Below, piece by piece: positions 5,123 through 40,266 of a stretch of DNA of 64,000 nucleotides. Source of the DNA: a virus; the IMG/VR virus record IMGVR_UViG_3300045988_179268, positions 32,001-96,000 of that record; one strand, 5' to 3'. A model generated the notes under the pieces. It was not told the origin of the DNA. It did no database searches and saw only the letters and a list, made by a program, of their open reading frames with translations. Each line of letters begins with the position of its first letter. Positions within the stretch are counted from its first letter, which is position 1. Position numbers and translations under genes: made by a program.

Positions 5123-5956
5123 TTATGCTACTGGTTCTGCTACCACCACATGATTATCAGTGTAAGTCCAGGTGCCATTTTTATAGGTTCCGTGGCACGT
5201 CGCCATGATAAGTTTGCGGGAGCCGTTCTTATCGGTCACGTCCCACCATTTGCTCAAATCGACCTGTGGGACTTTAGGCTCAATACGGGTTACTTTCCAT
5301 GTAGTCATAATTCCGTTCTCGTCCGTGGTGTAGACTGTATTTCCGCGTTCGCAGGCGACAATGGCACTCATGGGGGCGGGGACACCATTTGCCCAGTTTA
5401 CGTGACCCACTAGCAATGTCGTCCCTTTGTTGCTGGTCAGTGGCGCTGAGTCGGTGTAAACGCCGATTCTGTATGTTACAGGGATATTGATTTCTGTCCT
5501 GCCCGTTGTGGGGTTGTCAGTCCCTCCCGTGTATTGGAGTCCAGCGTTAAACCCTACATCTGGGATTCGGATAGTCATAGGGTTGATATTGTTCCAGTCT
5601 AGGTTTTTAGGTTGCTGACCCAATCCGGGGGTTGTATCCTCGGGCATATGGTCGATGCTATCAATATCGCCGCTTGTCTCTGCATGGTAATTTGGGGAGG
5701 CGGTGGTGGCAGTAGTATCGGTAGTAGGTTGTGATGGGGTTGGGGTAATTGAGGCGTTCCCGCTGTTTGACTGCTGAATTTCTGCAATTTGCGAAGCGCT
5801 GGGTGCATTGAATGATTCTGCTTGACGATTCACGTTCTCACGGTTTACTGAGTCAAAGTAGTATCCTGCACCGCCACCTAATGCGCTTGCGGCGGCAACT
5901 ACACCAACACCCTTCAATACATCGCGGCGGCTAGTCTTTTTCTGATTATCGGTCAT
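5123..5956 (-). CDS. Class-F-like sortase (transpeptidase) with Tat-like signal/anchor
   Basis: N-terminal SRRDVLKGVGVVAAASALGG. Sortase catalytic context LLVGHVNW (His) and LIMATCHG (Cys). Thr/Pro-rich linker. Confidence 0.65.
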   Translation of the reverse strand: MTDNQKKTSRRDVLKGVGVVAAASALGGGAGYYFDSVNRENVNRQAESFNAPSASQIAEIQQSNSGNASITPTPSQPTTDTTATTASPNYHAETSGDIDSIDHMPEDTTPGLGQQPKNLDWNNINPMTIRIPDVGFNAGLQYTGGTDNPTTGRTEINIPVTYRIGVYTDSAPLTSNKGTTLLVGHVNWANGVPAPMSAIVACERGNTVYTTDENGIMTTWKVTRIEPKVPQVDLSKWWDVTDKNGSRKLIMATCHGTYKNGTWTYTDNHVVVAEPVA

Positions 5957-6719: not shown

Positions 6720-7406
6720 ATGTCGCTCAGCAAGTCTCACATGAATAATGCGGATAGGATGGCTTCTATCCGTTCGTCAGCTGTTTCTGCGCCGCCGCCA
6801 CCAGATACGGAGCATGTTAAGCCACAAGGTAAGACTAGAAGGTTCCCGAGGCTTGTAACGGGTCTATTTGTCGGCATGTTAGTGGTGGCGGGTGCTGGGT
6901 ATGGTGCTTATAAAAGCGGCGTAACACCTGATACGCTCATAAGTAAAGTTTCGCCTACAGTCACCCAGTATCGTGTTGCGGGTGATTCAATGTTGCCCAC
7001 CTTTCAGGACGGGCAGATTCTTCTTTTTGAGAACCCACAGTCGGAACCTATTAATCGTGGCGATATTGTCGTCGCAGAAATGCCTGCCGTATGGCAATAT
7101 GCCAGCGCTACGCAGGGTGTCGTGGTGAAGAGGGTCGCCGCCGCTGAGGGAGACACGGTTTCTGTTATCGCGGGCGCTGTTCATGTAAATGGCGAACAAA
7201 TCACCCCTGTTCAGCCTACTTGCCAAGCAGATGAATATCAGCGTGTCCTTGGTGCTGGTGAGCTTTTTGTACTAGGCGACAATCGTTCCAATTCCCTAGA
7301 CTCTCTTAGTGTTCTCTGTACAGGTAAGGTTGAGGCAGATGCAGATGTACTTGTTCACACTTCCGCCGTTAAAGCCCACGGGAAAACTCCTGTTGTGAAA
7401 GGTTAG
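6720..7406 (+). CDS. lepB: Signal peptidase I (S26 family)
   Basis: TM anchor, GDSMLPTF (Ser box), VVKRVAAAEGDTV (Lys box), VLGDNRSNSLDS (box E). Exact start uncertain. Confidence 0.8.
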   Translation: MSLSKSHMNNADRMASIRSSAVSAPPPPDTEHVKPQGKTRRFPRLVTGLFVGMLVVAGAGYGAYKSGVTPDTLISKVSPTVTQYRVAGDSMLPTFQDGQILLFENPQSEPINRGDIVVAEMPAVWQYASATQGVVVKRVAAAEGDTVSVIAGAVHVNGEQITPVQPTCQADEYQRVLGAGELFVLGDNRSNSLDSLSVLCTGKVEADADVLVHTSAVKAHGKTPVVKG

Positions 7407-8371: not shown

Positions 8372-10411
8372 ATGACAAAAGGTAAGAAGGGTGCGCAGGA
8401 AGCGCTCACAGCCTCAGAGAAGCCGAAACTGCCTCTCCTGGCTGAGGTGGAAGACCTTAACTTTGAAGAGGCTTACAGTCGTCTTGTAGGCACTGATGAT
8501 AAGGGTGAACTTTACCTTGGTTTTGCTAATGCGTTAGAAGCGGCTACTAGTGCTACAGGTACAAGCCAGTTTGAAGCGCTGGTACGTATCCTTGTAGGTG
8601 AGAACGTCTTCATTGCCGGTGGGCCTGGCACAGGTAAGAGTTCCATTGTTCATTTGGCGTGCCGTGTTTTCGATATGCACGGTGTCGAGTATGAAGTCGC
8701 CGCTTCCACGGGCGCGGCGGCAGAAAACATTAAGGGCGTGACTATCCACAGCCTGTTTGGTGTAGATAAAAATAAGCATTGGGATAGTGAAGGTCGCGCT
8801 TCCTACATGTTCCATAAGTCGGAGCGTTTACGCCAGATTGATACGCTCATCATTGATGAGGTTTCAATGGTGTATGGACAGCTGTGGCAAGAGATGGATG
8901 AATATCTTCGCCGTATCCGCAAAAGCGATAAAGCTTTTGGTGGAATCCAAATTATTGCAGTGGGCGACTTTAACCAGTTGAACGCTGTGCCTGACCGAGA
9001 CTTTGAGCATCAACACTATTCCGGTTTCCCGTTTACCACTCCTGCGTGGGCTGATGCTCATTTTAGGTATTGTTTCTTGACTGAGGCTCACCGTGCAACA
9101 GACCCCGAGTTGGTGCGTATCATTAAGCACATGTCTGCTAACGCTTTAACTCCTCAGGATTTTGAGAGTTTGGCGAAGCGTTCAATTACGCAGGAGGAAG
9201 CGGATGCTCTTGACCGAGAGAATGGCGCTGATGCTGAGCCTACTATCCGAATTTACACTCGCAACATGGAGGTTGCTCAGCATAACGCGAAACGTATCGC
9301 TGAGCTTGACGGCGACTCTTTGATGTTTGAGTCTGAGGCTAAGCTACTAACTCTTGAAGACACGCTTACCCCAACTCAGCTTGCTCAGTGGAAAGCCGTG
9401 AAGAGTAGGGCGGCTAATGAGATTGAGCTTAAGATTGGCACTAAGGTTGTCGCTGATATGCCGACTATGGCGTACCGTGGTGGCAGTGCAGACGATAAGA
9501 ACATTAAGAAGAACTTTTGGGTTGGCGACGAGAGTACCAAGATTTCTAATGGTTCGATGGGGTATGTTCGAGCGTTTTCCACGATTGAAGGCGATGGCTA
9601 CTATACGTCTGTAGATGAGATTCCTGAGGATATTGACGTTTTCCCTGTTGTCCAGTTTGGTAGCGGTCTTTACCTTGTCCCGAACGTCGATAGCACGATT
9701 GAACGTCCTGTTCAGAAAGATGACGGCAAGTGGGTTAGTTCGCCTTATGTCCATAGTTCCATGTTCCCGTTAAAACCGGGTTACGCGATTACAGTTCATA
9801 AGTCTCAGGGGCAGACGTATGACGGCGCTGTTCTGGATTTAAGTTCCTCTTTTACGGAGGGTTTGGGGTATGTGGCTCTTTCGCGCGTGCGCCGTCTGGA
9901 TACGGCTTACATTTTGGGCTCTAACCCAAAGTCGTGGCAGGTTGATGAAGAGTCGGTTTCTATCATGGCTTCCATTACGGCGTGGGCGGCTGAGGACACT
10001 AAGGTTTTCCGTGAGCAAATCACTGATTACGATGACGCTTACAAGGCTTTCGTGTTTTTGGGCAAAAAGAACAATGCGGTCTTATCTGAGGTTCCAGACC
10101 GCATCCTTGTAGCAACACCTAATTCTAAGACAGCTTCTTTGGCGTTAAGCACAGGTGGTTCCACTCCAACAGGTTCCAGCAGTGATACAGGGCTTTCTGG
10201 AACCCCTGTATCCCGTGATTCCTTAAAGCGAGGTTGGATTGTATGCCAGAGACTAGAGCCTCTACATACGTCCACTGCGCCTGATGCGCGTTCTTCCGTG
10301 CCAGCTTTTGAAGATAGGATGGCGCATATCAAGGCGACCGGCGACGCGGATGCTATGGTGGCGCTTATGGTGGACATGATGGAAGAGTATGCTAATTTAG
10401 CTGGGCTTTAA
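8372..10411 (+). CDS. PIF1/RecD-family SF1 helicase
   Basis: Walker A GGPGTGKSS, Walker B LIIDEVSMV, VGDFNQL, YAITVHKSQGQTYDGAVLDL and GYVALSRVRRLD. Confidence 0.8.
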   Translation: MTKGKKGAQEALTASEKPKLPLLAEVEDLNFEEAYSRLVGTDDKGELYLGFANALEAATSATGTSQFEALVRILVGENVFIAGGPGTGKSSIVHLACRVFDMHGVEYEVAASTGAAAENIKGVTIHSLFGVDKNKHWDSEGRASYMFHKSERLRQIDTLIIDEVSMVYGQLWQEMDEYLRRIRKSDKAFGGIQIIAVGDFNQLNAVPDRDFEHQHYSGFPFTTPAWADAHFRYCFLTEAHRATDPELVRIIKHMSANALTPQDFESLAKRSITQEEADALDRENGADAEPTIRIYTRNMEVAQHNAKRIAELDGDSLMFESEAKLLTLEDTLTPTQLAQWKAVKSRAANEIELKIGTKVVADMPTMAYRGGSADDKNIKKNFWVGDESTKISNGSMGYVRAFSTIEGDGYYTSVDEIPEDIDVFPVVQFGSGLYLVPNVDSTIERPVQKDDGKWVSSPYVHSSMFPLKPGYAITVHKSQGQTYDGAVLDLSSSFTEGLGYVALSRVRRLDTAYILGSNPKSWQVDEESVSIMASITAWAAEDTKVFREQITDYDDAYKAFVFLGKKNNAVLSEVPDRILVATPNSKTASLALSTGGSTPTGSSSDTGLSGTPVSRDSLKRGWIVCQRLEPLHTSTAPDARSSVPAFEDRMAHIKATGDADAMVALMVDMMEEYANLAGL

Positions 10412-13310: not shown

Positions 13311-13865
13311 ATGTCTAAGCCACTTATCCCTGCTTTGCCGAAAAAGATTCGCCCTGATGAGGAGTTTGAATCACGTGCTTTACGTCAGTTCCACGATGTT
13401 TTTGGGCACCGAAACGGCTTCACTGACCCGCTGGACATGGATAGTTTGGAGGGGAAGAAAGAGCTTGTTCGACGCTTCAACTTCTTAGGTGAGGAGTTTG
13501 CGGAGCTTGGAGGGGCTATTTTTGATGAAGTTGATAGGCTGTTCCTTATGGCGGCTATTAACTTCGTCATTAGCCGTCACCGCGTCGAAGACCTAAAGGT
13601 GGATAAGGTGGAAGTTATTGACGCTTTGGGCGACATTCGTTATATTGACAGTGGTATGTTTGTATGCTTCGGCATTCCTCTAGAGTATGCCGCCCGTGAA
13701 ATCCATGCTTCCAATATGTCTAAATTAGGTTCAGATGGTAAGCCCATTTACAGGGAGGACGGTAAAATCCTCAAGGGTGAAAATTACGTCCCCCCGAACC
13801 TCGCGCCTTTACTAGAAGGCAAGACTACAGAGAACATGGAGAACTGGGTGACCGATGATGAGTAA
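13311..13865 (+). CDS. MazG-like nucleotide pyrophosphohydrolase
   Basis: EEFAELGGAI, DALGDIRYIDSG and HASNMSKLGSDGKPIYREDGKILKGENYVPP are typical of phage MazG-like proteins. Confidence 0.65.
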   Translation: MSKPLIPALPKKIRPDEEFESRALRQFHDVFGHRNGFTDPLDMDSLEGKKELVRRFNFLGEEFAELGGAIFDEVDRLFLMAAINFVISRHRVEDLKVDKVEVIDALGDIRYIDSGMFVCFGIPLEYAAREIHASNMSKLGSDGKPIYREDGKILKGENYVPPNLAPLLEGKTTENMENWVTDDE

Positions 13866-15069
13866 GTCTGGTAATGATTCACCCGTGGAGAGCGTTGATG
13901 CCTCTGAGGGGGTTAAGAAATCCTTTAAGGAGCGCCTGCTAAGCTTCGCAGGTAAAGCCAAGGGCGGAGCGGTTAGTTTCCTTGAGGGGTCTTATGGGCG
14001 TTTAGCACTGCCCGCTGTAAGCATTACGCTGTTCTTGTCTTTAATTTCCCCACTAATGCCAGGTATGGCTTGGTGGGCACCTTGGCTTTGGTTCTTCACG
14101 TCAGCGGGGTTCCTTTTCATACTGAGCCGTTCCATAGTAGTTATTAAAGTGTTAGTTACTTTAGCTATTATTGGCTATTGTATGGTGACAATGCACGATG
14201 TGGCTATTTATGCTTCACCGTATAGTGGCTGGGAGTTCTTTGCCGGGTTTTCACCGCTTCTTGGATTAGGAATATCTCTTACGTTGTCCATGTTTGGGAC
14301 TTACGGGATTTCCCGGTGGACTCATCAGCCTCTAGTGGCTATTTTGGCAACTACGGCGGGTGTTATTGTCACGGCGGCGACACTGAATCCTGCTTTGGGT
14401 GGAGCTGTCCTAATGGGCATTTCAGTTCTTACCTCATCCCTATGGTATAGGTATGGCATTAAGATGTTCTATTGGCGTTCTAAAATGCCTTTATTCGTCA
14501 AGCCGAAGCATCTTGAAGCCAAGCTTAAGCGGGAAGCGGCTATAATTAATGACCCGAAAAACAGTAAGACGAAGTATGACTCAGAGTGGTTCTACTACCC
14601 GTATGTAGCGCCTCGTAGTGGTGCGCCGTCACCTGTTTTCGTTATTGGCGACCGTGCTTATTTATTTTTCCCCGTTAGTCTTACAGCGCCTTTTGTTTTG
14701 GAAGAAAAGACGGGTCTTTTTGGGGATAAGGTGAAGTCACGTAAGCTGACGTATAAGGGGAAGCCTGTTGAGCCGTGGCTTTTTGATAAAGTGATTTCCA
14801 GGACACCTCCTGGTGTTATCCCTGTGCTTATGGATGTGCAGAATGCTTGTCCGCCGGATAAACGCAATATTACTTTAGCTATTCCTGATTCGCCTTTGAA
14901 CTCTGCCGGTGAACCTATCCGCTATCTTGAGGTTGGTATTATCAACGCCCGTGAGGTTAATAGTGCGGCAAAGGAACTTCATATCGTTAAACGTGCTGAA
15001 GCTATTTACCATTCGAAGCCGACTTTGGACGAAAAAACGCAGGCTCGTTTGAAGCGTTTAAAAATTTAA
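13855..15069 (+). CDS. Polytopic membrane protein with soluble C-terminal domain, unknown function
   Basis: Start overlaps the MazG stop. Multiple hydrophobic helices in the first ~200 aa. Confidence 0.6.
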   Translation: MMSKSGNDSPVESVDASEGVKKSFKERLLSFAGKAKGGAVSFLEGSYGRLALPAVSITLFLSLISPLMPGMAWWAPWLWFFTSAGFLFILSRSIVVIKVLVTLAIIGYCMVTMHDVAIYASPYSGWEFFAGFSPLLGLGISLTLSMFGTYGISRWTHQPLVAILATTAGVIVTAATLNPALGGAVLMGISVLTSSLWYRYGIKMFYWRSKMPLFVKPKHLEAKLKREAAIINDPKNSKTKYDSEWFYYPYVAPRSGAPSPVFVIGDRAYLFFPVSLTAPFVLEEKTGLFGDKVKSRKLTYKGKPVEPWLFDKVISRTPPGVIPVLMDVQNACPPDKRNITLAIPDSPLNSAGEPIRYLEVGIINAREVNSAAKELHIVKRAEAIYHSKPTLDEKTQARLKRLKI

Positions 15070-15249
15070 TACCCTTTTTCGCTTTGGTGCGGCACCAGAT
15101 GCATGTGCTATTATTGCTAATGTTGGAAGACATGGTACTACCTCCTTTCTTCTAGTGTTAAGTGATTAAGTGGTTAAGAGAGGGCACGTTCCATCATCTT
15201 TTGGGGCGTGTCCTCTCTTATGCTATCTGAGAGAGTATAGGACGATTAC

Positions 15250-16761
15250 TTGATTTCTCCTGAATCATTCGTGAACCTACATACCCACTCAACGTACTCG
15301 ACGTTGGATGGGTTTTCTAGCGTTAGTGAGTACATTAGTCGTGCCGTAGAGGTTGGACAGACCGCTTTAGGTATCACTGACCACGGCAATATGCATGGGA
15401 TTTATGAGCTAATTACTGGGTGCCAGAAAGCTGGGATTACACCTGTTCCAGGTTGCGAGTTTTATGTTGCGCCGCTGAATCCTGATGGTGCTAAGGTTCA
15501 GTCACCCGTTTACTATGGTGAGCCTGGCGCTGATGGTGATGTTTCAGGTAGAGGCAATTATTTGCATTTAACGATGTGGGCTGTCAATGATGAGGGTCTA
15601 CGTAACATGTTTGAGTTGCAGATGTTGGCTTCTTCCCCGGAGCATAAACGTGCAGGGTACCCACGTATTGATTTAGATATGATGCGTGAACATTCCGCAG
15701 GTGTTGTTGTCTCGACGGGCTGTCCGTCAGGTGAGATTTCCACCCGATTCCGCTTAGGTCAAGATGCTGAGGCATATAAGTATGCCGAAACTCTGGTTAG
15801 TATCTATGGGAAAGATAACGTGTTTGTCGAAGTTATGAACCATAACATGACTTCTGACCTTGAACGCGATTTGCTGATGAAGCAGATTAAACTGGCTGAG
15901 ACGCTAGGGTTAAGACTTTTAGCTACGAATGATTGCCATTATGCGCATCATTCTGATGCCCCGCATCATGAGGAGATGCTGGCTATTGGTACTGGTTCCA
16001 CTATGAATGATTTGCCTAAGGAACAAGGTGGGCGAAGGTTCTGCTTTGACGGTGACCAGTATTTCTTGAAGACTGCTGAACAGATGTTAGAGCTTTTCCC
16101 TGAGGATGTTTACCCTGGTGCTGTAACAAATACAGCAGTTCTGGCAGATATGGTGGAGGATTTCTCATTATTTGAGTACAGGTCTGACTTGCGACCCATC
16201 CCGCATATTCCAGCTGACGAAACAGAGGAAAGTTATCTGCGTAGAGTTGTCACGTCTCTTGCGTATGAGCAGTTCCACGATGATGAGGTGAAGTATCGGG
16301 CTGTACTTGATAGGGCGGCTAAAGAGCTTGATGTTCTAGCGTCAGCGAACTATTGCGGTTACATGCTTATTGTTGCTGAGTACGTGAATTGGTTCAGGGA
16401 TAGTTTCAGTGTTCGTAACAGCTCAGGCGACGTTGTGATGAGTGCTGTTGGTATTGCTCGTGGCTCGGCGGGCGGCTCTATTGTTGCTTATTTGTTGGGT
16501 ATTACAGATATTGACCCTATCGAGTACGGGTTGTTTTTTGAGCGTTTCATTTCGGCGGGACGTGTAGACCAGGCTGAAATTTCGGTAGGTGATGGCGCGT
16601 CTGTCGTCCTTCCAGTCTCGGAGAAGGTCAAAGTTCTTACCGAAGATGGGGTTGAGGTTGAGAAGTATATTCACCAGGTAGCAGAAGGTGACTGGGTTTT
16701 GGTTGAACCTGATACGCCTATCGGCAATATTTTTAGCAGTCCCGTTCCGGCTGAGGTCTAG
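15250..16761 (+). CDS. dnaE: DNA polymerase III alpha (DnaE), N-terminal piece: PHP domain and first part of palm
   Basis: FVNLHTHSTYSTLDG, ITDHGNMHG, GCEFY, GSAGGSIVAYLLGITDIDPIEYGLFFERFIS. Ends before the PDxDxDF catalytic motif, with a 65-aa non-DnaE tail. Confidence 0.85.
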   Translation: MISPESFVNLHTHSTYSTLDGFSSVSEYISRAVEVGQTALGITDHGNMHGIYELITGCQKAGITPVPGCEFYVAPLNPDGAKVQSPVYYGEPGADGDVSGRGNYLHLTMWAVNDEGLRNMFELQMLASSPEHKRAGYPRIDLDMMREHSAGVVVSTGCPSGEISTRFRLGQDAEAYKYAETLVSIYGKDNVFVEVMNHNMTSDLERDLLMKQIKLAETLGLRLLATNDCHYAHHSDAPHHEEMLAIGTGSTMNDLPKEQGGRRFCFDGDQYFLKTAEQMLELFPEDVYPGAVTNTAVLADMVEDFSLFEYRSDLRPIPHIPADETEESYLRRVVTSLAYEQFHDDEVKYRAVLDRAAKELDVLASANYCGYMLIVAEYVNWFRDSFSVRNSSGDVVMSAVGIARGSAGGSIVAYLLGITDIDPIEYGLFFERFISAGRVDQAEISVGDGASVVLPVSEKVKVLTEDGVEVEKYIHQVAEGDWVLVEPDTPIGNIFSSPVPAEV

Positions 16762-16782
16762 TTTTTAAAGGCGGTTTTAGGT

Positions 16783-18012
16783 ATGAGTGAAGAAGTTGTA
16801 GAAGAAGTTGCTGTTTCAGTTGTTGAGGAGGCAGATTCCGTTGAGCCTACTCAAGCTCAGCCCACAGAGTACGTTGAGTTTCACAGGAAATATCAGCCGC
16901 GTGTCTGGGATGACTTTATTGGGCAGGAGCATATTGTTGCGCCGTTAAAGCGTGACATTATCGAGAACCGCCGTGTCCAGGGTCGCCTATTTCGTGGCGC
17001 GGCTGGAACTGGTAAGTCTAGCATGGTGAAGGTTTTCACTAAGGCGATGAATTGTGAGGGTCGCCCTGCTGATTCTGCTGACCCGTGCCTTGTGTGTGAT
17101 TCGTGTGTCCGTTTTGATGCGGAGGAGAATGGCGGAATGTATTATTTCGTTGGTTCCGTCACAAGTGGTGTAGATGATGTTCGTGCTATCGTTAATGCTG
17201 GTCGTGTTAAGCAGATGATGAAAGCGCCATACATCATTATGGATGAGTGTCACGCTCTGTCGAAGTTTGCCTGGGATGCGTTTTTGGCATACCTGGAAAA
17301 TAAGGACGACATGGATAGTGTTCCTATTATTTTCTGTACCACGGAGGCGGGCGGCATTAAAGCCTCTATTTCAACCCGTGTCCAAGAGTATAAGTTCAGG
17401 AATATCCCTGTCCCTGTTTTGGAGCAGTATGTTAAGGATATTGCTAGGCGTGAGGGTGTGGAAATCACCGACAATGGTGCTTCTTGGTGTGCTCGTGCCG
17501 CCCAGGGTTCAGCCCGTGGCGCGCTAAAGCGTTTAGAAGAGTATCTGCGTAACCCTGACCTTTACTCTGTTGATGAGTCATTCGCCACAGTCCTCATGAG
17601 AGAGTTCATCCTTGGCGATGTACCTAAGCTTCATAAAGCTTTGGAGTCCGTCAAGCAGATTGACTCAGCCTTACGTGACGGCACAGAGCTTGCGATGAAC
17701 CAGCTGAGGCATTACATTGCGCGGCAGAATAAGGCTACGGTCAGTCTAGGAGATTTGCCTTTTGCCGACTTACCTAAGCAGAACGTAGGTTTGTCTATGA
17801 TGGAGCAGAATCTACCGTCTGATAAGGCAATGAAAGTACTTAAACTTATGGCAGAGACTTTCCACGGATTCTGGAATACTACCGACGAGAATATTATCTT
17901 CGAAATTCTTTGGCTAGACCTTACGGTAAGGATGCATGAACTGCTGGAAGATAGGCGCGCGAAGCAAAAAGAGCTTGAGCTACATCAGAATAATTCACAG
18001 GGGCGGAAGTAA
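16783..18012 (+). CDS. dnaX: DnaX (tau/gamma)-like AAA+ clamp-loader subunit
   Basis: FIGQEHIV, Walker A GAAGTGKSS, Zn module CLVCDSCVRF, Walker B IIMDECHAL, SRVQEYKF sensor. Confidence 0.75.
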   Translation: MSEEVVEEVAVSVVEEADSVEPTQAQPTEYVEFHRKYQPRVWDDFIGQEHIVAPLKRDIIENRRVQGRLFRGAAGTGKSSMVKVFTKAMNCEGRPADSADPCLVCDSCVRFDAEENGGMYYFVGSVTSGVDDVRAIVNAGRVKQMMKAPYIIMDECHALSKFAWDAFLAYLENKDDMDSVPIIFCTTEAGGIKASISTRVQEYKFRNIPVPVLEQYVKDIARREGVEITDNGASWCARAAQGSARGALKRLEEYLRNPDLYSVDESFATVLMREFILGDVPKLHKALESVKQIDSALRDGTELAMNQLRHYIARQNKATVSLGDLPFADLPKQNVGLSMMEQNLPSDKAMKVLKLMAETFHGFWNTTDENIIFEILWLDLTVRMHELLEDRRAKQKELELHQNNSQGRK

Positions 18013-18015
18013 TTC

Positions 18016-20730
18016 ATGGGGACTATTGAGAAACGTATTATTGACGGCAAGACATATGTTCGCGTGGCGGGGAATAAAGTTGTTCAGCCTGGTTCGCCAC
18101 CAGATATTGATACAGACTTCCATACAGCCCATAGGGACGCGGCGTTTGAGCATGTAGCTCAGCTGTATGGGGCTGACCATTCTGCGCGTCTGCCTACTAA
18201 CCAGATGCTTAAAACACGCGCGTCTATCAAAGATGGTGCGCGAGTGTATGGTGTGCCGCCTGCGCAGGCTAACTATGTGACGAGTCTTTTGCCAGATAGT
18301 CTAGGCGTTACCTTCGCTAAGGTGTATGACCCTGAGAGTGACGAGTTTGCGGGTGCTGAGCGTTTCCGTGAAGCTGTCAGCACGCCTTTCTGGGAGAAGC
18401 CTCTAGCTTGTGCTAAAGCTCTTGAGGGGCGTATCCGTGGTCGAGGTGTTCACGCTTGCGGACTTCTGATTTCCTCTAGTCCGCTACAGCATCATGTTCC
18501 CGTTGATACTGCTAAGGATGGCACTGTCGTTGCGGGGTTTGAATATGGTGCCTGCGAGAGCATGGGGCTGATTAAGTTTGACTTCTTAGGGCTGGATACT
18601 GTCGATATTCTTTGCGATGCGGCACGTCTAGCAGTGCAAGCCGGGAAAGATGTGCCTGACTTCCGTAAGATGGTTCGAGAAAGCCGCTTTGATGACGCTG
18701 AGACGTTCCGCTTACTGGGTAAGGGCGATACGGTTGGCATCTTCCAGCTAGGCAACTCTGCTGTTGCTGACCTTTTCACGAAGTTCACCCCTAGCACGCT
18801 GGGTGACATTTCAGCTATTACGGCACTTTATCGCCCTGGGCCAATGAGTGCTGGTAGCCATATCCAGTATGTTGAGCGTCGGGCTGGGCGTGAGGAGATT
18901 AAGCCGATTCATGCTGATTTTGTAGGTTCGCCATTAGATAGCATTCTTGCTGACACTAGTGGTCTGCTGGTTTATCAGGAGCAGGTAATGTCAATTGCCT
19001 CGCTTATCGCCGGTATGACCCCTCAAGAAGGTGACGACTTGCGTCGCGCTATCGGTAAGAAGAAGCACGATTTGATGCTTGCATACGCTGAGCGGTTCAT
19101 TGAGGGTGGCGCGGGTAACGGGTATAGCCGAGAAGCTATGCAGGCGTTGTGGGACAGAATTGTCGGATTCGCTGAGTACGGGTTCAATAAATCGCACTCT
19201 GACGCTTACGCGGCAATGGCTTACCTGGCGTTATACATGAAGGCGCATTTTCCAGCTGAATTTTATGCGGCGGCGATTGCCCGCAAGGTGTCAATGGGTT
19301 CATCTGGCAGAGATAAAGTTCAGGAACTCATTGAGGACGCTAAACGTCGAGGCGTTCGACTTGATGTACCTGACGTTAATTTCTCTAGCGCTGACATTGG
19401 TCTAAACGGTGACGGTAACCTTGCGTTTGGATTCTCAATGCTTAAAGGTGTTGGCTCTAAGGATGCTGAGGTTATTGTTTCTGAGCGTGAGAGGGCTGGA
19501 CTGTACTCAAGTTTCAAGGACTTCGTTGTTCGTAGCTTCAACGCAGGCAAGGTCACTAAAACAACGTATGAGGGGTTAGCTAAGGCTGGCGCTTTTGATG
19601 TGTTCGGTCTTTCTCGCAAAGCCGTCTTGGAAGCAATTCCGGGGTATTTAGATTTACTACGAAAAGAGAGGGCTAAGCTTAGGAGGCAGGCGCTAAAGCT
19701 GGCTAAGGAAACAGGCGTTGAGCCGTCCCCTGATGCTGAGCTTGTCTCTGGCGAATCGTTGCCGGAAGATGAAGCGTTAAGTCGAGATGATTATCCGCTG
19801 GTTGAGCGTCTGCGCCATGAAGCTGAGGTTGCTGGGCAGTATATGACGGGTCATCCGATGGCATCTGTGCCCGAGAGGGTACCTGTGATGCGTGGTTGTA
19901 CTGTGAGTGAGCTTATGGCTTCGGAACAGCCGGTGAAGGGTGCGGTAGTGATGGCGGCTATCGTTGCGTTGGATGACAAGACGCATAAGAAGTTTGGGCG
20001 TAAGGTCATTGCCACTTTGGATGATGGTACGGGCGTTATTGCTGGGTATGTTTCTAATAGCCTTCTTGCGCGGGAGGACTTGTGGGTTGCTGAGCAGAAT
20101 ATTAAGAGTGCTTATATTAATGGTGATGCGATTGATTCGTCTGATGCTTCTAAGGTTGATGCCGCGAATATTCAATCCAGCCCTAAGCTACAGCCGTACC
20201 ACGTCTATTCGCTACATGTGAACTACACCCCGGCGCGTAAGATTGTAAATGATGATGGGGAGGTTAATTACCGTCCACCATATTTGAACATTTTGCACGC
20301 CCGACAGGTTCCGTTGTCTGCTTCGGGAGATATGTGCGCCCGGCTAAGGGTCGATATTTCACGCGGCGGCTCTATGGGGGATGTTGTGAGTAAGTTGCGT
20401 GAAATTGTGGGCGGGCTTCATTCCGCTGATTCCACCCGCCACGTTCCGCTGATGGTTGCGCTTTATGACTCGTCAAAGCCGGGGTGTGGCGTGGACTTGC
20501 CCAGCAAGTTCCTTTATGCGGCGCGTGAGGGCACCTCTAAGGGAGTTTCATGGTCAGATTTGCCTGTTGCTCCAATGGAAGCTTCTACGGCGGCTATGCG
20601 AGATTTAGTGGATAAGATGGATTATGTGGAAGTGCCCATGCGGGTTCCTTTCATGAATGCCACGCGGAATACTTTAGTGAAAGTTTTCGGGGAGGGTTCA
20701 TTTGATTGGGGTCATTTCCTGGTTTCTTAA
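18016..20730 (+). CDS. dnaE: DNA polymerase III alpha (DnaE), C-terminal piece: catalytic aspartates, fingers, HhH, OB region
   Basis: PPDIDTDF 27 aa after the start, LIKFDFLGL, ALYRPGPM, EYGFNKSHSDAYA. ATG lies 3 nt after the dnaX stop. Confidence 0.85.
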   Translation: MGTIEKRIIDGKTYVRVAGNKVVQPGSPPDIDTDFHTAHRDAAFEHVAQLYGADHSARLPTNQMLKTRASIKDGARVYGVPPAQANYVTSLLPDSLGVTFAKVYDPESDEFAGAERFREAVSTPFWEKPLACAKALEGRIRGRGVHACGLLISSSPLQHHVPVDTAKDGTVVAGFEYGACESMGLIKFDFLGLDTVDILCDAARLAVQAGKDVPDFRKMVRESRFDDAETFRLLGKGDTVGIFQLGNSAVADLFTKFTPSTLGDISAITALYRPGPMSAGSHIQYVERRAGREEIKPIHADFVGSPLDSILADTSGLLVYQEQVMSIASLIAGMTPQEGDDLRRAIGKKKHDLMLAYAERFIEGGAGNGYSREAMQALWDRIVGFAEYGFNKSHSDAYAAMAYLALYMKAHFPAEFYAAAIARKVSMGSSGRDKVQELIEDAKRRGVRLDVPDVNFSSADIGLNGDGNLAFGFSMLKGVGSKDAEVIVSERERAGLYSSFKDFVVRSFNAGKVTKTTYEGLAKAGAFDVFGLSRKAVLEAIPGYLDLLRKERAKLRRQALKLAKETGVEPSPDAELVSGESLPEDEALSRDDYPLVERLRHEAEVAGQYMTGHPMASVPERVPVMRGCTVSELMASEQPVKGAVVMAAIVALDDKTHKKFGRKVIATLDDGTGVIAGYVSNSLLAREDLWVAEQNIKSAYINGDAIDSSDASKVDAANIQSSPKLQPYHVYSLHVNYTPARKIVNDDGEVNYRPPYLNILHARQVPLSASGDMCARLRVDISRGGSMGDVVSKLREIVGGLHSADSTRHVPLMVALYDSSKPGCGVDLPSKFLYAAREGTSKGVSWSDLPVAPMEASTAAMRDLVDKMDYVEVPMRVPFMNATRNTLVKVFGEGSFDWGHFLVS

Positions 20731-20750
20731 ACCAGCGGTTTAATCCCTAG

Positions 20751-20789
20751 AAGAGGGGTGTGTAGCTATATTTTCTATACACCCCTCTT
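20751..20789 (+). terminator. Hairpin after dnaE C-piece
   Basis: AAGAGGGGTGTGTAG / CTATACACCCCTCTT, 15 bp with one mismatch. Confidence 0.55.
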
Positions 20790-20833
20790 GTTTCATGTGA
20801 TGCCTATCAATTTTACTGAAAGTTGGTCATTCT

Positions 20834-22216
20834 ATGGCTATCCGCCTTTCGAAGCTTCAAGCTTCCACAGTCGTTCCAGTTCCACCACCAACAACTAACC
20901 CTGATTCCTCTGACGCTATTGATGTAAATGATTTTCCAGTAATTAGTGAAGATAGCGTACCCACTGATACTAGGGAACAGGAAACAGCGGCAAGCGCTTC
21001 CTCGCGCGAATCAGCGTTAGGGGACGCTATATTAGCGAGCCTACAAGGTGACAACTCTCAATTTGGGGTATTTGAAGACTATATTTCAGAGGACGATACA
21101 GAACCTTCATCTGATACTGATTCTTGGGAAGAAGACGAGGAAGACGATGAGTACTACTACTTATCACCTAGTGAACGTGCCGCTTCATCTGTAGCCGAAA
21201 GCTTTAGCCCTGATGATGAAGAGGGAATTGTTAGCTCCGAGATACCCTCAGAAGACGCTTTTTTCGACAGCCTATATGATGAATCTGACTTTGAAGATGA
21301 CGTAGATGAAACTGCTACAGATGACTCTCCTAGCATGGATGATGATTCCATGCTAGGCGACTTCGACATGCCTAGCATCGACGACATTGAACGTGATGAG
21401 GATGATGCATATGTCTTACGTGATGCTAAAGGGGCATATTTCCCGTGGGTGACCGAGTTCTTAGTTAATCTTCCTGAACTGGACGCTATGAATAACCTCC
21501 AGCCAGACGATTACGACTTATGGGAGAAGCTACATGAAGGTGACGAGGACGAAGAGGGTGAAGATTTATCCGACGAGCAAGCACCAACAGCAACTTCCGC
21601 TAGTAGCGCACCAGTAGCTCCTGCGCAGATTGGCGCAGATGAAGATGTTAAAGGCTCACGGAAGCAGGCAAAAGGCGGTATCGCCGCTTTTGCTTTACGT
21701 GCATTAGATGCTGTTGCAGGCGTACTGCACAAGGGTAGCAAAATCCCTATAATTGGGAAGCTCTTCAATAAGGCTATCCCTGGAACCCCTACTGGTCGAG
21801 GTATGGCTGGAGTCGCTATTGCGCTTATTCTGTTCCTTTTGGGAGGTTTCATTAATGGTCAAATCACTGGCGATAGGGTGTTCACCCCATCTGGTACATC
21901 TTCCGTAGAACTTGCAGACAATGGCAAAGTTTCGGTAGCAGGAATTAGCCGCAAAGACGGCGCTTATTACGCGATGGTGAAGAATGAAGGCGCAACTAAT
22001 GCTAACCGTGTTTATGGTTCAGTTCATGCGGCAGGTTCAGAGGCTTATAACCCTATTAGTTGGTTCAATAAAGCTGATTTAGGCACTTGTACGTTTAGGG
22101 TAGATTCTCTTAAGGTGGGTGCTGAGACGCAGGCACCTCTCACCTGTGAAGGCGATGTTTCGGGTAAGGGGTCAATGTCCTTTACTGATTTGATTGTAGA
22201 AAGCGAGGAAGTTTAG
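20834..22216 (+). CDS. Single-pass membrane protein with highly acidic ~270-aa N-terminal region
   Basis: Long D/E-rich tracts, TM MAGVAIALILFLLGGFINGQI, ~120-aa C-terminal domain. Confidence 0.55.
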   Translation: MAIRLSKLQASTVVPVPPPTTNPDSSDAIDVNDFPVISEDSVPTDTREQETAASASSRESALGDAILASLQGDNSQFGVFEDYISEDDTEPSSDTDSWEEDEEDDEYYYLSPSERAASSVAESFSPDDEEGIVSSEIPSEDAFFDSLYDESDFEDDVDETATDDSPSMDDDSMLGDFDMPSIDDIERDEDDAYVLRDAKGAYFPWVTEFLVNLPELDAMNNLQPDDYDLWEKLHEGDEDEEGEDLSDEQAPTATSASSAPVAPAQIGADEDVKGSRKQAKGGIAAFALRALDAVAGVLHKGSKIPIIGKLFNKAIPGTPTGRGMAGVAIALILFLLGGFINGQITGDRVFTPSGTSSVELADNGKVSVAGISRKDGAYYAMVKNEGATNANRVYGSVHAAGSEAYNPISWFNKADLGTCTFRVDSLKVGAETQAPLTCEGDVSGKGSMSFTDLIVESEEV

Positions 22217-26004: not shown

Positions 26005-26499
26005 TCAGTTATTTTTGAGGTTTTCTCCAGCGTCACGAATTGCTGTAGCCGCTGTTTCCTCGTCATAACCACGACGGATTAGCTTACCCATGATGCGGTT
26101 AATTGCTTTGTCTAGGTTCCAGTTTTCTGCCATCTCAGCTTTATCAAGCTCTTTCGATAAATAAGATGTTGCTAGGCTGACCGCGTTATCAAAATCAGAT
26201 TCAGCAGACCCTAACTCTTGGCATACTTCCTCAATGATACTTGGCGAGACACCTTCGTGCTCCAACGTCATTTTCAGTAAATTCGTTGATTTACCTTTAC
26301 GCTGGTTACTGTAGAAAGCCTCTTCCACGTATCGTTTATCGTTCAAGTACCCTTCGGCGGTCAGTTCCTCAATGATGTCAATAATCTCTTCGGGTGACAC
26401 TCCGAGTGAATCAAGTTCATTGATGATGCGCTGTGTAGGGGCATCTTTCTTAGCTAGACGCTTTTTAAGTTTCTCGATGCTGACGGCGGCGATTGACAT
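26005..26499 (-). CDS. recX: RecX-like RecA regulator
   Basis: Directly downstream of recA on the same strand. Repeated helical RecX-like segments (YLNDKRYVEEAF..., LEHEGVSPSIIEEV). Confidence 0.6.
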   Translation of the reverse strand: MSIAAVSIEKLKKRLAKKDAPTQRIINELDSLGVSPEEIIDIIEELTAEGYLNDKRYVEEAFYSNQRKGKSTNLLKMTLEHEGVSPSIIEEVCQELGSAESDFDNAVSLATSYLSKELDKAEMAENWNLDKAINRIMGKLIRRGYDEETAATAIRDAGENLKNN

Positions 26500-26619
26500 T
26501 ATGATATTCCCCTTCTTCTTATGGGCACTTTAGAGGCGGCAAACATTCTAGGTAGTTTCCTGTAAAAGTATATCTTCCTATCACAATGTTTGCCGCCTCT
26601 TTTGCGGGTTATTTATGGG

Positions 26620-27819
26620 TTACTCGATGTCGAGGAAGTCACCGATAAATCCCTCATCACCATCTGTGTCAGGTGCTTCATTTTCCTGCGCTTGCTCAGG
26701 AAGCTGGTAGGTGTCGGGGTGGTAATCAATAACTGGACCCTCAAACTTGCTAGAGTAGAGCACGTAGTCCTGGTCTGGCAAGAGGTGCGCGGCAACCTGA
26801 TTACCAATTTCTAGAGTGGTTTCGTAGTTCTCAGGCTGTGATAGTGCCTGAATGAACTTGGAGCGGGACTGTTCCTTAACCTGGAAGTCTACAGGGTTAG
26901 GGTAGGAGTACCATGAGCCGCCCTTGTGGACAACATTAAACTCCACAGCAAGGTCTACGAGGCTTGCAATTGCGGACACGCCTTCACCGTACATGATGTC
27001 AAACTCTGCCTGTTTGAACGGTGGAGCCATCTTGTTCTTCACAATCTTTGCGCGAGTGCGGTTACCGATGGGGTTAGCACCTTCTTTAAGGGTTTCGATG
27101 CGTCGGATGTCGATGCGGACAGACGCATAGAACTTAAGAGCCTTACCGCCAGTGGTGGTTTCAGGGGAGCCGAAGAATACACCAATCTTCTCTCGAAGCT
27201 GGTTGATGAAGATTGCGGTGGTGCCGGTTGCGTTGAGGCGACCAGTAATCTTGCGTAGCGCCTGGCTCATGAGTCGCGCCTGTAGACCGACGTGGGAGTC
27301 GCCCATGTCGCCTTCAATTTCGGCGCGGGGGACAAGCGCGGCTACGGAGTCGAGGATAACGATGTCGATAGCACCGGAGCCTACAAGCATGTCCATGATT
27401 TCGAGTGCCTGCTCACCAGTGTCAGGCTGGGAGACGAGGAGGTTGTCGATGTCTACGCCTAGCTTTGCGGCGTAGATGGGGTCAAGTGCGTGCTCTGCGT
27501 CAATGAACGCGGCTACGCCGCCTGCTTTCTGGACGTTTGCTACTGCCTGGAGTGCGACGGTGGTCTTACCGGAGGATTCGGGACCGTAGATTTCGATGAC
27601 GCGCCCCTTGGGTAGACCACCGATTCCTAGTGCCGCGTCAAGGGAGGGTGCGCCTGTGCTGATGGCTTCAACACGGTTCACGTTCTGGTCTAGGCGCATA
27701 ACGGCACCCTTACCGTAGTTCTTTTCAATCTGCCCCATGACAGCTTCGAGGGCTTTCAGCTTGCCTTCTTCGGTGCTGTGCTTGGTGGGTGCGACACTAT
27801 TTTTGGATACCCTAGCCAT
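26620..27819 (-). CDS. recA: RecA recombinase with ~45-aa C-terminal extension
   Basis: [19 protein letters not shown], Walker [44 protein letters not shown]. Confidence 0.95.

Positions 27820-37165: not shown

Positions 37166-40266
<3,101 letters not shown>

Follow-up and report, generated by a model that had tools for sequence, protein, structure and literature searches.

How can a virus make a replicative DNA polymerase from a gene that is broken in its active site? The question is raised by three consecutive genes on the plus strand of the 64,000-nucleotide stretch of DNA analysed here (the window), which is part of a large phage-like genome with IMG/VR viral contigs of 307–361 kb as close relatives. 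The outer two genes, dnaE-N (15250..16761, TTG start, 503 aa) and dnaE-C (18016..20730, 904 aa), were assigned by Pfam and by alignment to DnaE1 of M. tuberculosis (Mtb), and the gene between them, a dnaX-like clamp-loader ATPase of 409 aa (16783..18012), by Pfam and matches to the PDB. The arrangement had been noticed in a preliminary description and is confirmed here as real, down to the gaps of 21 nt and 3 nt read from the sequence. It had also been thought undescribed, and our literature search found no published description of a dnaE-N/dnaX/dnaE-C order.

The 21-nt spacer that follows the TAG stop of dnaE-N (16762..16782, plus strand) contains a purine-rich AAAGGCGG/TAGGT stretch ahead of the dnaX ATG. 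All three ORFs share one frame in the window, separated by TAG plus seven codons and by TAA plus one codon. Neither promoter-like nor terminator-like sites are in excess across 14800–21200, and it is this absence of consensus signals, together with the spacing, that suggests a single operon. Directly 5' of dnaE-N, and outside the polymerase, lies a 404-aa gene without a family match (13855..15069, plus strand). A gene of 363–412 aa, likewise without a Pfam match, occupies the corresponding position in six related loci (L004, L006, L008, L110, L111 and L112), where it is preceded, adjacently or nearby, by a MazG-like PRA-PH gene; Metallophos genes are also found upstream in four of the six.

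The two polymerase ORFs are complementary parts of one DnaE, neither of them complete. In the N ORF, Pfam recognizes a PHP domain (E 5e-35) and positions 2–104 of the 260-position DNA_pol3_alpha palm profile (E 2e-23), whereas the C ORF matches positions 100–260 of the same profile (E 2e-32), followed by DNA_pol3_finger (E 5e-43) and HHH_6 (E 5e-20). DnaE-N thus contributes the PHP domain and the first part of the palm, whose helices bear the GS/NTP-binding motif, and DnaE-C the Mg-binding catalytic DxD strand, the remaining palm segment, thumb, fingers and the HhH β-binding domain, with a C-terminal region that can be aligned to known DnaE only in part. The N ORF aligns with Mtb DnaE1 (7pu7/5lew) over residues 3–418, ending at ...FERFLNPER(T), and Ser 27 of the C ORF pairs with Mtb Ser 418 of SMPDIDIDF in an alignment spanning Mtb residues 418–1056; because of these alignments the halves are taken as complementary and non-overlapping. 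The motifs quoted earlier for the C ORF are all in place, with PPDIDTDF at residues 28–35, YRPGPM at 272–277 and GFNKSHS at 389–395. Its SPPDIDTDF strand (18094..18120, plus strand), aligned to Mtb SMPDIDIDF, carries the first two active-site aspartates, Asp 30 and Asp 32, and the third lies in LIKFDFLGL (residues 185–193; nt 18568–18594, plus strand), aligned to Mtb LLKMDFLGL. The PHP metal-ligand motifs of the N ORF (LHTHS, TDHGN, GCEFY, YLHLT, TGCPSGE and NDCHY) are those of Mtb DnaE1.

The middle gene is a genuine DnaX relative. Its product matches DNA_pol3_delta2 (E 1e-12), AAA and DNAX_ATPase_lid in Pfam, and its best PDB matches are E. coli γ/τ (E 1e-22, over residues 30–259). Following an acidic N-terminal extension, it has a Walker A motif (GAAGTGKSS, 72–80), a zinc module of the form C-X11-C-X2-C-X2-C (91–108), a Walker B motif (IIMDECH, 151–157), an SRC-like ISTRV (196–200) and a sensor-2-like GSARGAL (242–248). 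No τ domains IV–V were detected in the 409-aa protein.

Where exactly is the polymerase cut? The halves abut as ...ERFISAGRV | SPPDIDTDF, 2–3 residues ahead of the catalytic DxD strand. Alignments of bacterial DnaE and Mtb DnaE1 bear out the earlier statement that the ERF...R and PDxDxDF motifs lie close together in the single-chain enzyme, where they are contiguous, and the break does fall between them, in the active-site palm. It is not a bare break, however. N residues 440–503 and C residues 1–26 have no counterpart in bacterial DnaE, which reads ERFLNPERVSMPDIDVDF at this site, and together they correspond to a clade-specific, β-rich insert (~65 aa in unsplit relatives) just before the catalytic strand. 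The cut sits inside this insert domain, and its position there is the new point.

The insert is seen as one piece in six unsplit relatives (P0159, P0161, P0163, P0174, P0176 and P0185), which read ERFLSPGRG-[~60–65 aa]-PGSAPDIDTDF with the insert in the same loop. Its first part aligns to the N tails of the split proteins and its final strand or strands to their C heads. By alignment and AlphaFold2 (AF2) prediction, the window's N tail (residues 440–503; 16567..16758, plus strand) is the insert's N-terminal part, with predicted strands at 441–446, 450–455, 459–463, 469–473 and 482–485 and a less ordered stretch at 486–503; the family consensus at the protein level is xTYxITYDDGTxEExxVS...KYIHQLxxGDxV. 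The C head (residues 1–26, MGTIEKRIIDGKTYVRVAGNKVVQPG; 18016..18093, plus strand), placed by alignment to the unsplit inserts and by AF2, supplies the C-terminal portion of the insert; it has predicted strands at 6–9 and 12–24 and runs directly into the catalytic strand. Modelled alone, an unsplit insert has six strands, the last two (61–64 and 67–78) joined by a two-residue turn. We read these two as a hairpin whose turn is the site of the split. The two pieces differ in charge: N tails have a mean net charge of −8.6 and are negative in 99 of 100 cases, whereas C heads, K-rich throughout the family, average +2.5 and are positive in 83% (−9 and +3 in the window).

To model the joined enzyme, N residues 326–503 and C residues 1–203 were fused artificially into a single chain. 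The chimera is predicted by AF2 to fold as a canonical DnaE palm (mean pLDDT 92), with values of 87–96 for the insert strands, 93–95 for the C head and 70–74 at the artificial junction. Its best Foldseek match is 7pu7 (E 8e-20), and inteins appear in the list after the DnaE/PolC matches. The AF2 models of the insert, by comparison, returned mainly inteins and Hint modules. In the PDB the top matches were inteins and the Hedgehog Hint domain, with probability 1.00 and marginal E-values (4e2u, E 3e-3, TMq 0.54, r.m.s.d. 3.3 Å over 69 columns; 6rpp, TMq 0.57, r.m.s.d. 2.7 Å). The best match in BFVD had E 5.7e-4; many of the BFVD matches are unnamed, and the named ones at the top are mostly proteins that often bear inteins, together with a 'Hint module' and an 'Intein C-terminal splicing region'. 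At E ≤ 1e-3 there was no match in the PDB and one in BFVD. The insert model is thus shaped like a portion of a Hint (intein) module, a likeness that is structural only and of marginal E-value. Its fold is suggestive of descent from an intein. The N-tail sequence profile instead matches an 18-residue hairpin motif of Tudor repeats, and therefore an SH3/Tudor-like or de novo origin may also apply.

A whole clade of large viral contigs has this layout in conserved form, with variable cargo. Homologues of the N half (more than 100 clusters of ~470–515 aa) make up at least 120 clusters, the best 120 of 301 matches, at 43–92% identity to the window ORF and on contigs of up to 727 kb; the homologous C halves have ~790–940 aa and lack PHP. 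The synteny survey proposed earlier covered 12 further loci with separated halves, drawn from independent assemblies in JGI, ENA, Logan and IMG/VR, and every one of them, like the window, has a dnaX-like gene in the interval, which makes 13 in all. Depending on the relative, one to five unrelated genes occupy the interval, the added cargo being DUF4379 in L008, an epimerase, DAO and DUF4379 in L006, and HAD in L111. In two further assemblies (L113 and L114) the break falls at the same turn, yet the halves lie adjacent, overlapping by 14 nt and without cargo, which is an intermediate state. All three genes are under purifying selection, as seen from pN/pS against the 82%-identical relative L004, at which distance synonymous sites are saturated: 0.12/0.74 for N (0.19–0.26/0.76 for its tail), 0.24/0.72 for X and 0.09/0.67 for C (0.21/0.51 for its head).

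Our preferred reading, to which we give a probability of about 75% on sequence and model evidence, is an α-subunit made of two chains, which reassemble non-covalently by means of a split and inactive Hint-like module and are expressed together with their clamp loader. The closest competitor, though unlikely, is that the ORFs encode independent proteins, DnaE-N being a PHP exonuclease or pyrophosphatase that acts as a separate proofreader and DnaE-C a polymerase on its own, without a joint palm. In some DnaE1 enzymes proofreading is done by PHP, and the metal-ligand motifs here look intact. Minimal Pol III modules without PHP have also been described (Iyer et al. 2021, PMC7824862), but the two units of those modules are themselves predicted by their authors to reconstitute one enzyme. 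Moreover, DnaE-N bears a palm segment of ~110 aa, with the GS/NTP-binding motif, which every C half lacks; the fusion model folds as a single canonical palm; and a complementary tail and head would be purposeless. An active split intein, in which tail and head trans-splice the halves into one covalent α chain, is very unlikely, even though the models point to a Hint-like fold, Ser occupies the +1 position and the polymerase family hosts real inteins at other sites. Split inteins have an acidic N fragment and a basic C fragment, as here. Yet the smallest known inteins have roughly 125 aa or more, and tail plus head amount to ~60–90 aa, the insert being about half of a minimal intein. No splicing residues remain in it: its first position may be A, S, N, H, D, P or V, the tails show no evident block-B TxxH, and in place of a terminal HN there is a conserved PG at the end of the insert. 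Conservation of the +1 Ser extends to all DnaE, whether or not the insert is present. The insert has no match to a Pfam Hint or intein family, and its hhalign probability against the family's own inteins, which retain C...HN|S, is ~1%.

Removal of the interruption at the RNA level is extremely unlikely. Group I introns are frequent in phage polymerase genes, and ~16567–18093 could be imagined as a self-splicing intron that carries dnaX and leaves a message for single-chain DnaE; in an unrelated phage dnaE (L028), a group I intron bearing a LAGLIDADG ORF even lies 6–8 codons upstream of this site. The Rfam scan that picks up the L028 intron at E 4.6e-8 finds none in 16300–18400 of the window, however, even at E ≤ 10. 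Both tail and head are conserved at the amino-acid level under purifying selection and occur in the protein of unsplit relatives, and the interval holds different genes in different relatives. Fusion of the three ORFs by stop read-through or frameshifting is just as improbable as the intron. It would suit the shared frame, and stop-codon reassignment occurs in some large phages, but the frame is not conserved (in L004 the TAG is followed by an in-frame TGA and C lies in a different frame; L110 has a 4-nt overlap of X and C) and the window's long ORFs are all open under the standard code. As for mis-assembly, or a dnaE pseudogenised by dnaX insertion, the chance is close to nil: all that speaks for it is that a gene interrupted in its active site can generally be expected to be non-functional, and against it stand the same layout in independent assemblies from four sources, a 98%-identical C-half cluster (P0121) on 48 contigs, pN far below pS in both halves, and catalytic and PHP motifs that are all intact.

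Several known systems resemble the window in part. The single-chain enzymes of Streptomyces phage Eddasa and Saccharomonospora phage PIS 136 (35–39% identity to the window DnaE) and Mtb DnaE1 (7pu7; the best PDB match, 28–29% identical to the palm model when aligned by Foldseek) share its domain order and motifs, but are one polypeptide without the insert before the DxD strand and without a nested dnaX. The L028 intron interrupts the same conserved active-site loop and has an ORF in the interval; unlike the window, which has protein-level tails and no intron signal, it has an Rfam group I match and exons that join seamlessly (LLFER|FLNPHRISMPD). In group 2.2 jumbo phages a minimal C-family catalytic module is likewise split, into an NTP-binding N unit and a Mg2+/template-binding C unit (Iyer, Anantharaman, Krishnan, Burroughs and Aravind 2021, PMC7824862), at what is, going by the text of that paper, the window's functional boundary. 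That version has been reduced to a core that lacks PHP, the fingers extensions and HhH; its genes lie far apart and it occurs alongside a family B replicase, whereas the window has a full-length, PHP-containing DnaE whose halves flank dnaX, with a dedicated insert at the cut.

Cyanobacterial DnaE (Ssp/Npu) is encoded by two genes with a naturally split intein (Caspi et al. 2003, cited in PMC3919608; Novikova et al. 2016, PMC4760082). It shares with the window a two-gene α-subunit, a break in a Hint-shaped module and the acidic N and basic C pieces. As expected from the preliminary description, the sites differ: the cyanobacterial split is in the fingers near FNKSH, which is intact here, and the window's in the loop before the DxD strand. 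The cyanobacterial halves are also far apart in the genome and are joined covalently by trans-splicing, whereas the window halves flank dnaX and their module is about half the size and without splicing residues; the chain probably stays in two pieces. The 'fractured genes' of Dassa et al. (2009, PMC2677866) likewise have halves that lie near each other on a single strand, separated by another gene. They are reported to contain an active split intein, with a homing endonuclease as the gene inserted; in the window, intein motifs are absent and the insertion is the replisome component dnaX, accompanied in some relatives by metabolic cargo.

In the two-chain reading that we prefer, the replicative C-family α-subunit would be made as two polypeptides, DnaE-N and DnaE-C, from a gene broken in the turn of a small β-rich insert domain before the catalytic strand. 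The acidic N tail would dock the basic C head by charge attraction and β-strand complementation. Such non-covalent assembly would restore the insert domain, and hence the palm active site, without a peptide bond, to give what may be an active polymerase. Because the dnaX-like gene is nested with gaps of 21 and 3 nt and without an internal terminator signal, the N, X and C proteins would be co-translated from one message, coupling the amounts of the two polymerase chains to that of the clamp loader.

The dnaE gene of the window is divided between two ORFs with a complete third gene between them, all co-directional on the + strand. The first, dnaE-N (15250-16761, 503 aa, TTG start), encodes the PHP domain and the first part of the palm. 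It is followed after 21 nt by a dnaX-like gene (16783-18012, 409 aa) for an AAA+ clamp-loader ATPase and, after another 3 nt, by dnaE-C (18016-20730, 904 aa), which contributes the catalytic strand, the finger and an HHH_6 domain. In Pfam searches, the N ORF matches PHP (PF02811, E 5e-35) and positions 2-104 of the 260-position DNA_pol3_alpha profile, and the C ORF matches positions 100-260 of the same profile, the finger (PF17657, E 5e-43) and HHH_6 (PF14579, E 5e-20). Against the single-chain DnaE1 of Mycobacterium tuberculosis (7pu7), alignment of the N ORF extends to the end of FERFLNPER(T), with V439 as its last aligned residue, and that of the C ORF begins at S27, equivalent to S418 of SMPDIDIDF. 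Profile coverage and alignments thus identify the two ORFs as complementary pieces of one DnaE. This agrees with the preliminary description, which had assigned PHP and the start of the palm to the N ORF, had the C ORF reach the catalytic PPDIDTDF near its start and continue from there, and expected the halves to be non-overlapping by DnaE profile.

The break cuts the active-site palm, as had also been proposed. The NTP-binding GS motif (ARGSAGGS) is on the N ORF, and the C ORF carries the three catalytic aspartates, D30 and D32 in PDIDTDF and the third in KFDFLGL, so the Pol-beta-like palm is complete only when both ORFs are combined. Fingers and clamp-binding HhH domains of the DnaE type are present in the C ORF. 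A DnaE-type alpha subunit is ordinarily a single polypeptide; here it occupies two ORFs with a complete gene between them, likewise in all 12 further loci with separated halves. The C ORF has no match to the OB fold (PF01336), its alignment to M. tuberculosis DnaE1 ends at about residue 1056 of 1184, and domain assignments end at about residue 680 of 904. Two segments at the break, N residues 440-503 (the N tail) and C residues 1-26 (the C head), are without counterpart in bacterial DnaE. The PHP metal-ligand motifs in 15277-15942 (LHTHS, LDG, TDHGN, GCEFY, YLHLT, TGCPSGE, NDCHY) are those of M. tuberculosis DnaE1, whose PHP domain is a proofreading exonuclease, and the N-half may therefore additionally supply proofreading.

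The gene between the halves was correctly described as DnaX-like. Its product matches DNA_pol3_delta2 (PF13177, E 1e-12), AAA and the DnaX lid in Pfam, and among solved structures it comes closest to E. coli gamma/tau (E 1e-22, over residues 30-259). Walker A (GTGKS), Walker B (MDECH), a zinc module of the form C-X11-C-X2-C-X2-C and an SRC-like STR are all present. Past the lid, where collar domain III and tau domains IV-V would lie, there is no Pfam match, and the PDB alignments end at about residue 259 with some 150 C-terminal residues beyond; neither search recognised anything resembling tau domains IV-V. The three ORFs share one reading frame in the window, with TAG and seven sense codons, then TAA and one codon, between them. 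This common frame is probably due to chance, because it is not kept in L004, an 82%-identical relative in which the TAG is followed by an in-frame TGA and the C ORF lies in another frame.

The layout is not peculiar to the window. A search with the N ORF gave 301 matches, the best 120 of which are N-half clusters, mostly of about 470-515 aa and 43-92% identity; among these 120, a few are 544-580 aa long, nine of 620-880 aa carry an intein, and the contigs that bear them reach 727 kb. The C ORF retrieved C-halves of about 790-940 aa lacking PHP, including one 98%-identical cluster found on 48 contigs. IMG/VR holds an 82%-identical N-half on viral contigs of 306,861 and 360,643 bp, and has further contigs of 82-110 kb; with dnaX as query, it yielded one distant locus only. 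In assemblies from JGI, ENA, Logan and IMG/VR, 12/12 further loci with separated halves (L004/5, L006/7, L008, L011-L015, L110-L112) have a dnaX-like gene in the interval. Some loci carry extra cargo there as well: a 315-aa ORF, an epimerase, a DAO oxidoreductase and a DUF4379 protein in L006, a DUF4379 protein in L008 and a HAD hydrolase in L111. In comparison with the 82%-identical relative, synonymous change has reached saturation (pS 0.67-0.76) and pN is 0.12 for the N ORF, 0.24 for the dnaX-like gene and 0.09 for the C ORF; tail (0.19-0.26) and head (0.21) are also well under pS. Mis-assembly and pseudogene decay of the window's dnaE are ruled out by the recurrence of the layout in independent assemblies and the low non-synonymous change.

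The flanks are conserved to some degree. Synteny 5' of dnaE-N is kept in part between the window (13311-15069) and six loci (L004, L006, L008, L110-L112), all of which have a MazG-like PRA-PH gene upstream, adjacent or nearby, and a Pfam-less gene for 363-412 aa immediately 5' of dnaE-N (6/6); Metallophos genes are found upstream in 4/6. On the 3' side of dnaE-C, Pfam-less genes occur in most loci, with one of about 480-580 aa and then one of about 260-380 aa in four, and Rce1-like and FtsK-like genes are in the vicinity in some. Among 50,697 phage records, megablast of the 5.5-kb region found no match, nor did tblastn with the unsplit form of the domain at the break described below; tblastn with the N ORF found only single-chain DnaEs of at most 39% identity, the tail being uncovered in all of them. 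The best 80 matches of the N-tail profile in GTDB genomes include no true member and are dominated by ordinary bacterial dnaE with a FERFLS pattern. Judged from these sequences, the window and its relatives, a clade of large uncultured phages, share a two-gene DnaE that is conserved, looks functional and has a clamp-loader gene nested between its halves.

The position of the break becomes clear from unsplit, single-chain relatives among the C-ORF matches. Five of them (P0159, P0161, P0163, P0174, P0176) are 1292-1299 aa long, and a sixth (P0185, 1549 aa) has an intein too; all have PHP, palm, finger and HHH domains. Their active-site loop reads ERFLSPGRG, then about 60-65 aa, then PGSAPDIDTDF, where bacterial DnaE has ERFLNPERVSMPDIDVDF. 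The initial ~48 residues of this insert match the N tails (consensus xTYxITYDDGTxEExxVS...KYIHQLxxGDxV) and its final strand (xKxIxSIxVxxPG) matches the C heads. Thus, by alignment, dnaE is broken within a lineage-specific insert domain, at the turn preceding its final strand. The C head consists in most members of one K-rich strand, for example MSKKIKSIEVIRPGS, and is longer in the window's subclade, with two predicted strands. When the N-tail profile was run against 1.84 billion representatives, the domain proved confined to DnaE proteins, barring short motif matches: in about 20 clusters it forms the C-terminal part of an N-half, and about 13 unsplit clusters (1221-1788 aa) have it at ~400-475, with one each near 524 and 564.

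An intermediate arrangement is seen in L113:10001-14795 and L114:2047-6715, two independent assemblies of a lineage in which the halves are adjacent, with a 14-nt overlap, in different frames and with no gene between. The split falls at the same insert turn (...GDMIDEEN-stop / MKKIKNIKIVDPGSSPDIDTDF), and the A-rich overlap GAAGAAAATTAAAAAT could in principle permit +1 frameshifting to a full-length chain. The states observed are therefore unsplit, split and adjacent, split with dnaX, and split with dnaX and extra genes. An 11-aa indel before GRGS, present in 99/100 measurable N-halves from the first search, was considered as a marker of a single split origin and dropped, since a second group of N-halves lacks it; it is absent from the L113/L114 lineage.

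We modelled an artificial fusion of window N326-503 and C1-203 with AlphaFold2 from an 86-row alignment. The model has a mean pLDDT of 92 and a pTM of 0.83, and its palm matches solved DnaE (7pu7, E 8e-20). Five strands in the tail (N 441-446, 450-455, 459-463, 469-473, 482-485) and two in the head (C 6-9, 12-24) are predicted with pLDDT 87-96, and the artificial junction has pLDDT 70-74. Modelled alone, the unsplit insert of P0161 forms six strands (pLDDT 85-92); its strands 61-64 and 67-78, which we read as a hairpin, are joined by a two-residue turn, where the split is located.

Foldseek searches of the PDB with the isolated insert returned inteins or Hedgehog Hint domains in 14 of the 15 top matches, including 4e2u (E 3e-3, TMq 0.54, rmsd 3.3 Å over 69 columns) and 6rpp (TMq 0.57, rmsd 2.7 Å). 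Among viral predicted structures, many top matches are unnamed (best E 5.7e-4); those with names are for the most part terminases, RNR, PhoH and a polymerase, protein classes that frequently carry inteins, together with a 'Hint module' and an 'Intein C-terminal splicing region'. For the window chimera, most matches of significant probability after DnaE/PolC are inteins. Across searches, the Hint matches have a probability of ~1.0, TMq 0.5-0.59 and rmsd 2-4 Å over ~60-70 columns, a similarity that spans about half of the Hint domain at marginal E-values and with no sequence-level support. The insert's sole sequence-level resemblance outside DnaE is of another kind: a 49-position motif profile of the N tail ranks long tandem Tudor-repeat proteins at the top (P0241-P0251 and others; Tudor_5, Agenet, SGF29), with matches limited to an 18-residue hairpin, TYxITYDDGTxEE, at profile positions ~5-22. 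Tudor homology was not adopted, because the match is confined to those 18 residues. Pfam gives Tudor fragments for the isolated insert at noise level only, Foldseek returned no Tudor fold for it, and the resemblance is probably motif-level convergence. As modelled, the insert is Hint-like in shape; whether it descends from an intein is, in our estimate, close to an even question, tilted slightly towards no.

Two kinds of mobile element could account for an interruption at this site without a two-chain enzyme. A self-splicing intron would be one, and the active-site loop of dnaE is indeed a target for mobile elements, as seen in an unrelated phage dnaE of ~28% identity (L028:9965-14815, IMGVR_UViG_3300049715_000004), in which a 242-aa LAGLIDADG ORF interrupts the coding sequence 6-8 codons upstream of where the window's gene is broken. 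There, our positive control, Rfam detects Intron_gpI (E 4.6e-8, 38.7 bits, under the family gathering score of 50) and the exons join seamlessly (LLFER/FLNPHRISMPD). The same scan of 16300-18400 in the window, at E<=10, gave noise only and no group I or II intron core, and tail and head are conserved as protein; an intron at the window's break is rejected on both grounds. The other candidate, an active split intein, would fit the Hint-like shape of the insert. Residue 1 of the insert at the break is variable (A, S, N, H, D, P or V), no block B TxxH is evident in the N tails, the head has a conserved PG where an intein would end in Asn, and the only splicing residue present at the break, the +1 Ser, belongs to DnaE. 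No intein or Hint family was matched by Pfam in the N ORF, the C ORF or the isolated insert (the last at E<=10), and hhalign of the insert against the split family's own inteins gave a probability of ~1%. With splicing residues and a sequence match to intein families both absent, an active split intein at the break is also rejected.

Bona fide inteins, carried by many members of the split family, sit at other sites. In nine N-halves (P0018, P0022, P0052, P0067, P0075, P0093, P0100, P0119, P0120), the intein interrupts the GS motif (GRG/C...HN/SVGGS) with canonical C1, HN and +1 S. Intein-bearing C-halves (P0133, P0142, P0152, P0162, L008:11496-15212, L112:12603-16277) have one or more sites, and some of the family's inteins contain endonuclease domains.

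We consider a two-chain, non-splicing DnaE the probable state of this enzyme (about 0.75), as judged from sequence. The two parts of the divided insert carry opposite charge: N tails have a mean net charge of -8.6 and are negative in 99/100 (-0.156 per residue vs -0.036 in the N body), and C heads have a mean of +2.5 and are positive in 83% (+0.172 per residue vs -0.010 in the C body); in the window, the tail is -9 and the head +3. This pattern and the fit of the hairpin geometry suggest that the head strand docks on the final tail strand, thereby completing the insert domain. Docking would set the DxD strand in register with the N-half palm helices, with no peptide bond formed, in a non-covalent two-chain assembly. 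Natural split inteins associate in the same manner. That tail and head act as such a zipper is a mechanism we favour, with less assurance than the two-chain state itself. The intergenic spacing of relatives consists of 4-nt overlaps or similarly short gaps, and a scan for promoter-like and terminator-like sites was uninformative, showing no excess, with counts at or under shuffle expectation. All three genes are probably on one transcript with coupled translation. More tentatively, the insert could be the remnant of a dead intein, domesticated and kept as a self-complementing, charge-steered zipper, whose loop was safe to break, was possibly broken repeatedly, and was then colonised by dnaX and cargo. 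The series of unsplit, adjacent, dnaX-nested and extra-gene states supports this reading, which we rate somewhat below even.

Divided polymerases are known. In the split DnaE of cyanobacteria, an active split intein marks a cut in the fingers near FNKSH and the halves are far apart, whereas FNKSH is intact in the window (C 389-395), in line with the different break site asserted at the outset. In 'fractured genes' (PMC2677866), the split intein is active and the gene between the halves encodes a homing endonuclease. T4-like jumbo phages have a minimal Pol III core (Iyer et al. 2021, PMC7824862) split at the same functional boundary, with NTP binding on one unit and Mg/template binding on the other. 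That core lacks PHP and the other DnaE domains, is encoded by distant genes and accompanies a family B replicase, whereas the window has PHP, fingers and HhH, with halves 1.25 kb apart; no PolB was seen among its scanned ORFs. Passages retrieved from surveys of Pol III alpha and of its inteins (PMC3919608, PMC4760082) mention neither this break site nor this layout. As anticipated, no description of a dnaE-N/dnaX/dnaE-C layout was found in the open-access literature, nor one of natural intein relics. What is new is the cut within a charge-complementary insert domain of predicted Hint-like shape, with dnaX nested.

The genes around dnaE resemble a large module for replication and repair. Upstream are a PIF1-like helicase (8372-10411), two Metallophos genes and a MazG-like gene. 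Cell-like genes at 5123-5956 (- strand), 6720-7406, 26005-27819 (- strand), 38011-40266 and 46411-48177 comprise a TAT-signal sortase, signal peptidase, RecX, bacterial-type RecA (E 3e-137), NAD-dependent ligase and DnaG-type primase. Directly 3' of dnaE-C, the 460-aa ORF 20834-22216 has no family match; its initial ~250 residues are extremely acidic and of low complexity (D, E and S runs), and a hydrophobic segment lies near residue 330. Among the window's genes, none was recognised as capsid or terminase. On the cellular side, DnaE is nearest to that of Actinomycetaceae, a hint of an actinobacterial host. Both base skews flip sharply near 42-44 kb: GC skew is about +0.1/+0.2 over 2000-42000 and -0.1/-0.3 over 42000-64000, and AT skew is about -0.1/-0.3 and then +0.25/+0.4 in these intervals. 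The cumulative GC skew maximum is at ~42 kb; long ORFs are mostly on the + strand on either side. The flip may mark a start or end point of replication, or a module of different history.

A bacterial-type replicative polymerase can, it appears, be built from two chains cut beside the catalytic aspartates, and a whole clade of very large phages retains it. The comparative series, from intact insert to split to split with nested genes, offers a rare stepwise view of fission in an essential enzyme. If the insert is a non-splicing split-Hint zipper, it would exemplify what becomes of an intein after splicing is lost, a natural heterodimerisation module joining an essential two-chain replicase, and zippers of this kind may yield heterodimerisation tags that are small and evolved in nature. 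The obligate nesting of dnaX suggests that polymerase assembly is coupled to clamp-loader supply; if so, the nested gene would tie the stoichiometry of alpha to that of the clamp loader in these phages.
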